The notes: generated by a model from the letters alone, not told the origin. 64,000 nt of DNA from an uncultured Lactobacillales bacterium (GCA_964414185.1 CAYPVK010000003.1:37085-101084), one strand, 5' to 3'. Numbered from the stretch's first letter, positions 1-4,488 are shown. Numbers and translations: made by a program.

Positions 1-700
1 TCCATTCCAAGGATATATCTCCTATAATCATTTCAATCCCCAAAATTAACGAAGCGTCTTTTTCAAAAAGTACGGTTAAGTTTTCTTTGAAATTTAATTC
101 CTCTTTTAAAAAAATTGTTAATTTTTCTTTCATTTCATCACTTAAATCATCAGATGAAATAATTCGAATATTGTTTTGTTTTAAATAGAATTTTTTTATT
201 TTTTCTTTTTGACTTTTTGAAAGTACGGAAACTTTTTTTTCAAACAAATCAATTGTTTGATAAAGAGGGGTGGACGCGGATAATTCGCTTAATATTTTGC
301 GTGAAAGCGTTATAAAATTATCTGCTAACAAATTGCGGATTTCCAATTGAACGGTTTCATTTTCGCGTATTAAATCATGTTGCATTTTTTCGCGCAACCT
401 TTGTTTTTCAATTTCAATTTCCGCCATTTGCCGTGCTTTAAAAATTTCCACTTCTTTTGTTGTGTCATCATAAAGCTTTTGTCTTTGGGCATTAAAGTCG
501 GCTTGTTTTTGAAGGAGCTTATTATGTTCTTCTTCGGCCGATTTTTGTTCTTGGCGTGCCTTTTGAACACGTCCCATTATTTCAATCTGTCTTTTATCGA
601 CGGCATTTAAAATGGGGCGGTATAAAAATTTCTTGAGCAACCATACCAAGACAAACAGGTTGACAATTTGGGCAAAGAATGTAACCCAGTTGATACCCAT
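1..700 (-). CDS. atpF: ATP synthase b subunit (partial, runs off the left edge) with a delta/OSCP-like C-terminal region
   Basis: Manual minus-strand translation from the ATG at 698-700 gives MGINWVTFFAQIVNLFVWYGLLKKFLYRPILNAVDKRQ.., a b-subunit TM and charged coiled-coil. The reading frame stays open for at least 233 aa. The last visible part (LTVLFEKDASLILGIEMIIGD) resembles the delta-subunit C-terminal motif. Confidence 0.6.
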   Translation of the reverse strand, partial: MGINWVTFFAQIVNLFVLVWLLKKFLYRPILNAVDKRQIEIMGRVQKARQEQKSAEEEHNKLLQKQADFNAQRQKLYDDTTKEVEIFKARQMAEIEIEKQRLREKMQHDLIRENETVQLEIRNLLADNFITLSRKILSELSASTPLYQTIDLFEKKVSVLSKSQKEKIKKFYLKQNNIRIISSDDLSDEMKEKLTIFLKEELNFKENLTVLFEKDASLILGIEMIIGDISLEW

Positions 701-748
701 AATTTAAGCTCCTTTTTCAGTATGACCTAAACAATATTTTTTTACTTT

Positions 749-1027
749 TTATTTTGCGGCCATTTCAACGGCATAATTCCAAAACGGATTGAAATATAAA
801 ATTAAAACGGTAATAACAAACGAATAAATAGCACACGATTCAATCATGGCCATTGAAACGAATAACGTCCTGGTAATTGTCGCGGCTTCATCCGGTTGCT
901 GAGCGATTGAACGTAAAGCGGCGTGTGCGGCGTTACCTTCACCGAAACCCGATCCCATACCGCCGATGGCGATACAAAGCCCTGCCGATAAAACGGACAT
1001 ACCTCCGATAAATGTTACTGCATCCAT
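749..1027 (-). CDS. atpE: ATP synthase c subunit (proteolipid)
   Basis: 92-aa two-helix hairpin with a glycine-rich helix 1 (GGMGSGFGEGNAA) and the helix-2 motif MIESCAIYSF (E, S and Y ion-binding positions). Confidence 0.9.
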   Translation of the reverse strand: MDAVTFIGGMSVLSAGLCIAIGGMGSGFGEGNAAHAALRSIAQQPDEAATITRTLFVSMAMIESCAIYSFVITVLILYFNPFWNYAVEMAAK

Positions 1028-1052
1028 AATTTTTCTCCTTTCTGTAAGTTAG

Positions 1053-1745: not shown

Positions 1746-2155
1746 TTTGTTTTCCTTTTACGCGAGCCGATTTGTCGTGATGTTAATTTCGTTTTTGAAA
1801 ATTCGGTTGTATTTCGGGTAAAATTTTTGTTTCTATCAACTTTTGCCACACGGGCGGATAATGTGTCCAATACATTGTTTTTAATATATTTTAAAACTAT
1901 TAAACGGGTGATAATGAAACCGATGAATATTAACAGGAATCTTGCGCCGTTGTCATATGAAAAATAAAGGGCGACAAAAATAACCAAAAACAGTCTGATA
2001 ACGGCGGAAATAAATAAAAAGTTGCCTTTTTTTTGAACTTTCGGCAAGTAGAGCAGGGTGCGCCACAAGATAATCAAGTATGCCAATCCCAGCAAAACAC
2101 CCACAGTTAATGAAAATCCGATTTGCATCGGTGTTAAAACAGCAAAATCAAACAT
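1742..2155 (-). CDS. AtpR/AtpI-like small membrane protein of the ATP synthase operon
   Basis: Hydrophobic protein with Arg residues inside the predicted TM helices. It lies immediately upstream of atpB with a 4-bp overlap. Its position matches atpR in N-ATPase operons. Confidence 0.5.
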   Translation of the reverse strand: MFDFAVLTPMQIGFSLTVGVLLGLAYLIILWRTLLYLPKVQKKGNFLFISAVIRLFLVIFVALYFSYDNGARFLLIFIGFIITRLIVLKYIKNNVLDTLSARVAKVDRNKNFTRNTTEFSKTKLTSRQIGSRKRKTK

Positions 2156-2504
2156 TTTTGGTATCCTTTTTACGATTCATTTTTTCCCAGGCCTTTTTTT
2201 TGGCCCGCATGTTTCTGATGACGCCTTCTTTATTAATCCAACGCTGGGCATTGTAAAAACCGATTATAAACCCAATCAAGATTAAATTAAGTGTCCATGA
2301 CATTGGTGGCAACGGGAATTTTTTATCCAACCAACGTCCGATAATGACGCCGATAATGACGGGAACGGAAATATTCCAACCGTATGTGCCCAAAATGGCG
2401 GCATTCAAATACAGTTGGCGGTTACGGCGATTTTCCATTGCTTTAGCTTTTTTTATTAAAGTTTTGGCGGTATTTTGGATTTCGTCTTTGTTACATTGTG
2501 CCAT
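2148..2504 (-). CDS. AtpZ/AtpQ family protein (ATPase_gene1)
   Basis: Motif LGTYGWNISVPVIIGVIIGRWLD typical of the AtpZ family. It sits between atpC and atpR/atpB. Confidence 0.6.
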   Translation of the reverse strand: MAQCNKDEIQNTAKTLIKKAKAMENRRNRQLYLNAAILGTYGWNISVPVIIGVIIGRWLDKKFPLPPMSWTLNLILIGFIIGFYNAQRWINKEGVIRNMRAKKKAWEKMNRKKDTKNV

Positions 2505-2904
2505 TTGCTCCCCCGTCGGATTTAAGAGATTGCAACCCTTTTACAAGCCCGATTTCAAGGCGTGCCATGGTTGTGTTAACTTCTTTGCGTTCTTCATCCA
2601 TTGCTTTAAAATCAATTTCAATCGTTTTTTGCAATTTTTCCAAACTGTCATCCAAAATGGCCAACTTCGTCGATATGGAAATATTTGCGCCTTTTTTGAC
2701 AATGACCCCTTTATTGCAAGCCATATATTTTGTTATGTTGTCCTCATTCGTATAGCTGACAATTGATGGTGTTAAGGCGTTGACATAATCCACATGTTTA
2801 GGCAATAAAGTCCAATAGCCGTCAATGGCTTCGAAATCTATTTTTCGAATAGGCAAGTCAAGCACTGTTCCCGTGGGTGAAAAGACTTTTAATTGCATCA
2901 ACAT
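2491..2904 (-). CDS. atpC: ATP synthase epsilon subunit
   Basis: N-terminal beta-sandwich pattern LKVFSPTGTVLDLPIRKIDFEAIDGYWTLLPKHVDYVNAL. It directly follows atpD. Confidence 0.75.
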   Translation of the reverse strand: MLMQLKVFSPTGTVLDLPIRKIDFEAIDGYWTLLPKHVDYVNALTPSIVSYTNEDNITKYMACNKGVIVKKGANISISTKLAILDDSLEKLQKTIEIDFKAMDEERKEVNTTMARLEIGLVKGLQSLKSDGGANGTM

Positions 2905-4488
2905 TTATTTTTTATCAGTCCCTTCATCTGAATTTGATTTTACGTTTTGTTCCGTGCTTTGTTTTTCCTTGGATTTATCTTTTTCTTCAGAGGATTTTTC
3001 GCGGGCTTCTTCGACCCGTCCGATCATATAAAAACTGTTTTCGGACAAATCGTCAAATTCACCCGCCATAATGCGCTCGCATCCGGAAATTGTTTCTTCC
3101 AAATCGACCGATTTGCCTTCCATGCCGGTAAATTGTCCGGTGGTAAAAAACGGTTGCGTTAAAAAACGTTCCAATTTACGCGCCGTTTGAACGGTTTTTT
3201 GGTCATGTTCGGGCAATTCATCAAATCCGAGCATGGCAATAATATCTTTTAATTCTTCGTACTGTGCCAAAGTTTTACGTACTTCGGTTGCAACTTTATA
3301 ATGACGTTCGCCGACAATCAACGGCGTTAACATGTTAGAAGAGGAAGCCAGCGGATCAAGGGCAGGGTATAAACCTTGTGCCGCACGGTTTCTGGACAAA
3401 ACGATTGTAGACGACAAATGGGAAAATGTATGAGTTGCCGACGGATCGGTAAAATCATCCGCAGGCACATAAACGGCTTGAATGGAAGTAATCGCCGCAT
3501 CTTTTGTACTGGCAATACGTTCTTGCAAATCCGCAATGTCCGTACCCAATGACGGTTGATAACCCACGCGAGACGGTATTTGTCCGAGTTGAACGGAAAT
3601 TTCCGAACCGGCTTGAATAAAACGGAAAATATTGTCAATCAACAACAAAACGTCTTGTTTTTTTTCATCACGGAAATATTCTGCCATTGTCAAAGCCGAC
3701 AAAGCCACACGGAAACGTACACCCGGCGCTTCATTCATTTGCCCGAAAATCATGATGGTTTTATCCAAAACGCCCGCTTCTTCCATTTCGCGGTACAGTT
3801 GTTCGCCTTCACGCGAACGTTCCCCGATACCGGCAAATAAGCTGACACCTTCGTAACGACCGACCATGTTGTTAATCATTTCGGTAATCAAAACGGTTTT
3901 TCCAACCCCCGCGCCGCCAAACAAGCCTGCTTTTCCGCCGCGTTCCATCGGTGCCAACAAATCAATGGCTTTAATGCCCGTTACGAAAATTTGTGAGGAA
4001 ACTTCGATTTTATCCAATGGAACGGCATCGCCGTGTATCGGCCGTTTTTCGCCGTCTTTTAAGGGGCTTTTGCCATCGATGGGATACCCGAACACGTTAA
4101 ACATGCGCCCAAGCGTTTGTCTGCCTACAGGCACTTCAATCTGATGACCCAAATCCAAAACTTTCATACCGCGCGACAATCCTTGAGTGGGACCCATGGC
4201 CAAAGCGCGCACTGTTTTTTCGTCAATGTAACCTTGCACTTCAAGAGCTAAGTTTTCACGTTCGCCAGTTAAAAGTTGATTATAAATAGCGGGCAGTTTT
4301 TTGAAACGCACTTCGACAACGCTGCCCGAAATAGCGGTAATAATACCGGTATTTTTTCCTTTGGCGGGTAATTTTTCGTCTTTATTTTTTACGTTTTTTG
4401 CCATCACAGTTTTATTTGCGTTTGTTTTATTCGCATGAGTCGTTTTTTTGTGTGAAGCAGGTATGCCGTTTTTCATATATTTCCCCAT
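2905..4488 (-). CDS. atpD: ATP synthase beta subunit with Lys-rich N-terminal and Glu/Lys/Ser-rich C-terminal extensions
   Basis: Walker [11 protein letters not shown] and the catalytic DELSEED-like region are present. Total length is 527 aa, against about 470 for a typical beta subunit. Confidence 0.95.

Follow-up and report, generated by a model that had tools for sequence, protein, structure and literature searches.

The left end of the 64,000-nucleotide window analysed here (GCA_964414185.1, CAYPVK010000003.1:37085-101084, filed under an uncultured Lactobacillales bacterium; "the window" denotes this whole stretch) carries a cluster of ATP synthase genes on the minus strand, between positions 1 and 4488. 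We interpreted this cluster as belonging to a complete N-type (N1No) ATPase operon of a gut alphaproteobacterium, vertically inherited as a core locus and most likely serving ATP-driven cation extrusion, a reading that, taken as a whole, we consider highly probable.

The N-ATPases, a divergent sub-family within the F-type ATPases, were defined (Dibrova 2010, PMC2881411) by the gene order atpDCQRBEFAG, a tell-tale atpR whose product has Arg in two transmembrane (TM) segments, atpQ replacing atpI, the absence of a delta gene, a long subunit b whose C-terminus can be aligned with delta, Glu in both helices of subunit c, the clustering of all subunits apart from the F-type ones, and their occurrence as a second copy beside an F- or A-type enzyme. 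Based on the listing of open reading frames (ORFs) and the translation of the window's left end, seven co-directional minus-strand genes were found. These were atpD (2905..4476, N-type beta, 523 aa counted from M5, with the ORF reaching 4488 and 527 aa), atpC (2491..2904, epsilon, 137 aa), atpQ (2148..2504, 118 aa, "ATPase gene 1" family, two TM segments), atpR (1742..2155, 137 aa, N-ATPase-specific membrane protein, three TM segments), atpB (1053..1745, subunit a, 230 aa), atpE (749..1027, subunit c, 92 aa) and the start of atpF (1..700, a single long subunit b with the first 233 of its 257 codons in the window and the rest beyond the left edge). The atpD and atpC genes are adjacent and the next junctions overlap (14 nt for atpC/atpQ, 8 nt for atpQ/atpR and 4 nt for atpR/atpB), as expected of a single operon.

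Pfam assigned the products to ATP-synt_ab, ATP-synt_DE_N, ATPase_gene1 (PF09527), AtpR (PF12966), ATP-synt_A, ATP-synt_C and ATP-synt_B, with E-values from 1e-11 to 1e-72 (beta matched PF02874, PF00006 and PF22919; epsilon PF02823, E=3.4e-12; AtpQ PF09527, E=1.7e-14; subunit a PF00119, E=1.9e-44). The seven ORFs are thus real genes and not chance ORFs. The order D-C-Q-R-B-E-F given in an earlier note on this DNA was recovered by ORF translation and Pfam, and its statements that no delta, alpha or gamma gene lies between these genes and that there is one b gene held for the window's ORF set. The AtpZ-family protein and the Arg-bearing membrane protein that it described matched PF09527 and PF12966, and the motifs that it quoted were located in AtpQ (LGTYGWNISVPVIIGVIIGRWLD), in subunit c (FGEGNAA and MIESCAIYSF) and in subunit b (ASLILGIEMIIGD).

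An exact-protein look-up with subunit a returned two Logan contigs, encoding proteins 100% identical to those of the window. Past the left edge, contig L001 contained the rest of atpF (257 aa in total), atpA (508 aa) and atpG (306 aa), followed by HU, accD and a 2-hydroxyacid dehydrogenase gene. A search for atpA and atpG just past this edge had been set beforehand as a check, and both genes were there. The locus is therefore a full atpDCQRBEFAG operon, an order also present in 15 related loci of metagenome-assembled genomes (MAGs); the window holds the 5' two-thirds of a complete, intact operon. The canonical alphaproteobacterial F-type layout consists of atpHAGDC plus atpIBEF'F, with a separate delta, both b and b', and F1 and Fo in two clusters. 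It was not matched here, where nine genes form one cluster with one b and no delta gene.

The NCBIfam "alternate F1F0 ATPase" model was the top or joint-top match for all seven shared subunits. The scores against the alternate vs. the generic F-type models were 733 (TIGR03305) vs. 648 (TIGR01039) bits for beta, 712 vs. 625 for alpha, 210 vs. 128 for gamma, 262 vs. 123 for a (261.8 with TIGR03306), 116 vs. 44 for c (116.2 with TIGR03322, 43.7 with the generic TIGR01260), 149 vs. 44 for b (TIGR03321, full-length protein from L001) and 109 vs. 33 for epsilon (108.6 with TIGR03166, whose cut-off is 100.1). The nine-gene order is identical to that of the N-ATPases of Methanosarcina barkeri, M. acetivorans, Synechococcus PCC 7002 and Burkholderia spp., with which the locus also has in common the two intramembrane Arg of AtpR, the PF09527-type AtpQ, the absence of delta, the long b and the Glu in both c helices. 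It differs from them in having Cys at position 67 of subunit c, several scores below family cut-offs, and genus-specific Lys-rich tails on beta, AtpR and AtpQ. Gene order, AtpR and AtpQ, the profile scores and the C-terminus of b all agreed with the proposal that this is an N-ATPase and not the alphaproteobacterial F-type arrangement, and we regard membership of the family as established. The b-delta fusion, the Arg residues of AtpR and the c subunit with two Glu had all been described before as marks of this family (PMC2881411) and are not new; the locus is ordinary unless it encodes the sole ATPase of its lineage.

The AtpR protein scored 45.5 bits against PF12966, above the gathering score of 26, and 30 bits against TIGR03165, whose cut-off is 55.5. 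Three hydrophobic segments stand out in its hydropathy profile; R54 falls in the second (TM2) and R84 in the third (TM3). In an alignment of 11 orthologues, R54 was invariant and R84 was present in at least 90% of the sequences, which bore out the intramembrane Arg residues claimed for this protein. Residues 95-137 form a genus-specific basic tail rich in Lys and Arg. The AtpQ protein scored 67.7 bits against TIGR02230 (cut-off 46.7) and has hydrophobic segments at residues 36-55 and 65-83; Pfam and NCBIfam searches gave no match to PF03899 (atpI), PF09527 being present instead. By eye, the AtpQ termini are Lys-rich.

Subunit b consists of an N-terminal TM helix, a coiled-coil stalk and a domain resembling the C-terminal domain of delta. 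Its C-terminal 127 aa matched positions 99-172 of PF00213 (OSCP) with E=3.7e-4 and 21.1 bits, against a gathering score of 22.3. A profile built from 11 orthologous b C-termini matched delta/OSCP chains in the PDB (7p2y_d, E=4.2e-5; 6yny; 7jg5_d, E=0.0044). The delta/OSCP-like ending that had been attributed to b was therefore traced by both approaches to homology with the C-terminal domain of delta, which is the only part of delta detectable in b. No OSCP-only (delta) gene was found on L001. The mycobacterial b-delta protein (7JG5 chain d), in which b is likewise fused to delta, was matched by the clade's profile at residues 375-438. That protein has 445 aa and includes the whole of delta with its N-terminal alpha-binding domain, whereas the b subunit described here has 257 aa and the delta C-terminal domain only.

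We then considered the coupling ion. Subunit c was aligned residue by residue to the Na+ ring of F. nucleatum, 3ZK1 (tool output), and residues E30, E63, S64, C65 and Y68 fell on I. tartaricus positions 32, 65, 66, 67 and 70, giving E32, E65, S66, C67 and Y70 in a numbering based on what we take to be the I. tartaricus c sequence. The full set of Na+ ligands (E/Q32, E65, S/T66, T67 and Y70) is not present in the window, where T67 is replaced by Cys (E-S-C-x-x-Y). In Na+ rings, the water molecule completing the Na+ shell is held in place by T67. The earlier description of a Na+-type c subunit was thus right for E32, E65, S66 and Y70, which stand at ligand positions, and had missed the Cys. Members of the family without Thr at this position are allowed by its published description (PMC2881411).

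Among the 120 closest c subunits in the matches listed, E32, E65, Y70 and S/T66 were each present in 120 of 120, and position 67 was occupied by Thr in 114, Cys in three, Gly in two and Ser in one. The ESC motif was also found in the c subunit of UBA7488, and ESTxxY in sister species. This indicated that the c family consists overwhelmingly of members with the complete two-carboxylate Na+ site and that this genus represents a rare one-residue derivative. The best PDB matches of c were the Na+ rings of A. woodii (4BEM) and F. nucleatum (3ZK1, E=4.3e-16). The two-carboxylate F. nucleatum ring and the I. tartaricus ring 1YCE, both c11, have E32/E65, S66, Y70 and the helix-1 packing motif GxGxGxGxG in common with the window, but they belong to canonical F-type synthases with a separate delta and without AtpR, and carry T67 where the window has C67. 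The packing motif is GxGxGxGxG in the window, GxGxAxGxG in many relatives and AxAxGxAxG in a distant group, and such variation suggests that ring size may vary.

A rival to a Na+-coupled (or mixed Na+/H+) enzyme is a proton-coupled N-ATPase, in which the fifth, water-mediated Na+ ligand would be lost through T67C, as it is through T67M in Burkholderia pseudomallei. The N-type ring of this species, the only one studied biochemically, has 17 subunits, E30, E61, T62 and Y66, and Met at T67, and was measured as H+-specific (PMC5376962). It has in common with the present system the N-type operon, the two-carboxylate motif, all ligands except T67, and Arg164 in subunit a; the window c likewise falls short of T67 alone. 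The ProAD rule, which calls a site H+-specific as soon as one residue of the Na+ motif is missing (PMC11738941), points the same way. On the other side, Cys is small and weakly polar and, unlike Met, may leave room for the bound water; ESTxxY with E32 is complete in the 114 Thr-bearing c subunits counted above, and the closest structures are the Na+ rings already named. Gut contents also hold roughly 10^5-fold or more Na+ over H+. The B. pseudomallei c17 ring further has the motif AxGxAxAxG, whereas the GxGxGxGxG of the window is like that of the c11 Na+ rings, and so ring size and ion may differ between the two.

The T67C replacement would be expected to weaken Na+ binding. Since the tested ring and the ProAD rule speak for H+, yet Cys is much smaller than Met, the sequence evidence leaves Na+ (or mixed Na+/H+) and H+ coupling in this species at about an even chance, and proton coupling is accordingly given the same weight as its counterpart. 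For the EST relatives, their motif makes Na+ coupling likely. The ESTxxY relatives and the ESCxxY genus together form a natural one-residue series for the role of T67 in Na+/H+ selectivity.

Homology to F-type enzymes predicts an alpha3beta3 head coupled to a gamma-epsilon rotor, driving it or driven by it, and a c-ring turning against subunit a, in which a SLAFRLYGN motif contains the stator residue R164. The peripheral stalk would consist of the long b alone, probably as a homodimer, with the delta-like C-terminal domain capping the head in place of a delta subunit. Following the proposal of Dibrova et al. (PMC2881411), AtpQ and AtpR probably help to assemble or regulate the c-ring with its two Glu per subunit, and the two intramembrane Arg of AtpR would then probably pair with the two membrane Glu of each c. 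The N-ATPases are viewed as ATP-driven cation pumps (PMC5376962). The most likely role here would be ATP-driven cation extrusion, maintaining membrane potential and ion homeostasis in a Na+-rich gut.

The 15 related loci were obtained by scanning GTDB species-representative genomes with subunit a. The records of 14 of them are titled Alphaproteobacteria bacterium and derive from ruminant and human gut metagenomes; the sources of the relatives include sheep rectum, roe deer cecum and rumen, buffalo cecum and rumen, and UBA and HGM bins. A protein search added more than 120 protein clusters with beta identities of 75-99% and similar gut sources. By its sequence affinities, the host is an uncultured gut alphaproteobacterium. 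One locus, L012 (CAVCSV010000020.1), is titled Limosilactobacillus gorillae and bears the alphaproteobacterial N-ATPase operon; its identities to the window equal those of the UBA6411 locus L013, and the MAG has probably been mis-binned or mislabelled.

The nearer group of loci (L003-L008 and L017, seven MAG species) kept the neighbourhood tyrS - atp - HU - accD - dehydrogenase, and, on contigs reaching far enough (L004, L005 and L017), a histidine kinase gene upstream of tyrS. Identities to the window in this group were 83-89% for beta, 77-94% for alpha and 74-82% for a, comparable to those of accD. A distant gut group (L009-L016) had the whole operon, including atpQ and atpR, at 72-74% for beta, 57-61% for a and 41% for gamma. 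The GC content and the GC content at third codon positions (GC3) of the operon equalled those of tyrS, accC, pgi, mutL, serS and addA in the window. The native composition and the conserved neighbourhood argued for vertical inheritance rather than recent acquisition, and the operon has the look of a core locus that the clade has passed on vertically for a long time. N-ATPase operons are usually patchy, strain-specific and mobile, as in Futiania (PMC2881411, PMC9927469), so that the housekeeping neighbours seen here set this locus apart from the apparently mobile accessory ones known elsewhere. The locus extends the known range of N-ATPases to a host-associated alphaproteobacterial lineage, in which the operon behaves as a core housekeeping locus and not as a mobile accessory.

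Two of the upstream neighbours had features of their own. A hybrid histidine kinase (5951-8122, 723 aa) adjoins tyrS, with synteny in L004, L005 and L017 at 64-89% identity; by eye, its H-box (GGVAHDFNNLL) and a C-terminal receiver-like region are CckA-like. The tyrS product encoded ahead of atpD in L004-L007 was 26-27% identical to the TyrRS of the window (4689-5903), compared with 68% in L008 and 92% in L017. The occurrence of a divergent tyrS at the same syntenic position suggests in-place replacement by another type of TyrRS.

A further question was whether the N-type enzyme could be the lineage's only rotary ATPase, a primary ATP synthase/ATPase that breaks the rule of always being the second copy. 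A literature search on ATP synthase in RF32 / CAG-239 gut Alphaproteobacteria found nothing. We regard a sole N-type enzyme as unlikely, on the following balance. In its favour are the stable core locus with native composition and housekeeping synteny over two deeply diverged gut clades, and a conservation of beta (84%) and alpha (82%) like that of accD (85%) in the comparison with L003. With the nine subunits as tblastn queries, no second ATPase gene was found outside the operons in the 64 kb window or 17 loci; none flanked the 15 related loci, nor was any present in the extra DNA beyond the window, ~5.5 kb on the left (L001) and ~10 kb on the right (L055). The extension of the right end on L055, through SerRS, contained housekeeping genes only. 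N-only genomes do exist, in genus T78 of the Chloroflexota (PMC11738941), and a likely reduced, host-associated lifestyle argues somewhat for an N-only clade.

Against a sole ATPase, the visible DNA amounts to ~80 kb, a small part of the genome. The ProAD survey of GTDB names T78 alone as N-only, and a large gut clade of this kind would probably have been noticed (PMC11738941); all earlier surveys show an F- or A-type enzyme beside the N-type (PMC2881411, PMC4154653). The broader scenario in which the whole gut clade is N-only, having lost its ancestral F-type enzyme, with the N-type being essential and probably Na+-coupled and T67C acting as a natural ion-selectivity switch, is to be taken as a speculation of similarly low probability. 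If the gut genomes do lack an F-type enzyme, they would form a second exception to the auxiliary-pump rule, and a much larger one; T78, whose enzymes are predicted to be of the H+ type (PMC11738941), offers a possible precedent. If true, such an N-only clade would also bear on the open question of ATP synthesis by N-ATPases.

Returning to the interpretation of the locus as a core N-type operon encoding a cation pump, several points weigh against it. The pump-only role, although the most likely one, depends on the second-copy rule for N-ATPases, and the strong conservation and housekeeping context would suit a primary essential enzyme equally well. In the one N-type ring tested by biochemistry, the Na+ specificity predicted from sequence proved wrong (PMC5376962), and both ion specificity and direction of operation are read here from sequence only. 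The family placement used the comparison of hidden Markov model (HMM) scores as a proxy for a tree. Moreover, beta, alpha, gamma, a, b and c scored under the curated NCBIfam cut-offs of the alternate models (e.g., beta 733 vs. 752 and b 149 vs. 225). The six sub-cut-off scores mark this as a divergent branch of the N-ATPases.

The same scores, together with beta and alpha lying above the generic F-type cut-offs and the NCBI names of homologues ("F0F1 ATP synthase subunit beta / C"), could be taken to mean a canonical F-type ATP synthase with rearranged gene order and a superficial resemblance to N-ATPases, an explanation already disfavoured and, in our view, very improbable, given the tell-tale AtpR with its conserved Arg residues, the exact atpDCQRBEFAG order, the single long b-delta subunit with no delta gene, and the higher scores of the N-type models in 7/7 shared subunits.

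The beta subunit carries an N-terminal tail of ~43 residues, rich in Lys, Asn and Thr, ahead of the beta-barrel domain, and a C-terminal tail of ~32 residues, rich in Lys, Glu and Ser, past the last conserved residue. The earlier note had reported such extensions; they are real and the N-terminal one falls within its 30-50 residues, while its "about 40" for the C-terminal one was slightly long. The tails were common only to orthologues of 87-99% identity (P0001-P0003 and UBA7488) and have changed far more rapidly than the core; in most relatives beta has 459-466 aa and no tails, and a few others have unrelated tails of other lengths. The beta and AtpR tails look like lineage-specific low-complexity appendages, probably disordered, and the sequence comparisons made gave no evidence of a specific function for them. 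In the core of beta, the "DELSEED" loop reads DELPEHD (residues 419-425 of the 523-aa protein). Among 12 aligned clade sequences, its D, E, L, P, E and final D were invariant and the H varied to K.

Regarding the upstream boundary of the operon, the second ATG of atpD (4476) has a Shine-Dalgarno-like GGGGA motif 5 nt upstream, and public-contig gene calls put beta at 523 aa; M5 is thus likely to be the true start of beta. A consensus scan of the tyrS-atpD intergenic region gave, as its top minus-strand site, a candidate sigma-70 promoter (TTGACC-17-TATAGT, 4508..4536, minus strand, 10/12 matches) in the 200-nt gap after tyrS. An intrinsic-terminator-like hairpin follows tyrS (4640..4665, minus strand) and consists of an 11-pair stem, then the T-run TTATTGTGTA; it is the predicted upstream boundary of the atp transcription unit. 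Plus-strand ORFs within 1-4488 (e.g., 2344-2766) were rejected as genes, being antisense to strongly supported ones.

Other features were noted farther into the window. Two tRNA-Asn(GTT) genes of equal Rfam score (11611-11685 and 14262-14336) flank an ORF of 579 aa (12047-13786); a Pfam search gave no match for this ORF or for those at 10166-10774 and 10778-11356. The segment 29162-39104 may be an integrated element, with an HTH_36 protein (29162-29950), several ORFs without a Pfam match, and a GmrSD_N + HNH endonuclease (38022-39104) that adjoins tRNA-Gln (37202-37275); GC content falls to 0.34 at 36-38 kb, where the sign of the GC skew flips. A type IV secretion coupling protein of 737 aa (54568-56781), with T4SS-DNA_transf, TrwB and TraG-D_C domains, has the housekeeping genes addAB, pgi, mutL and serS as neighbours.

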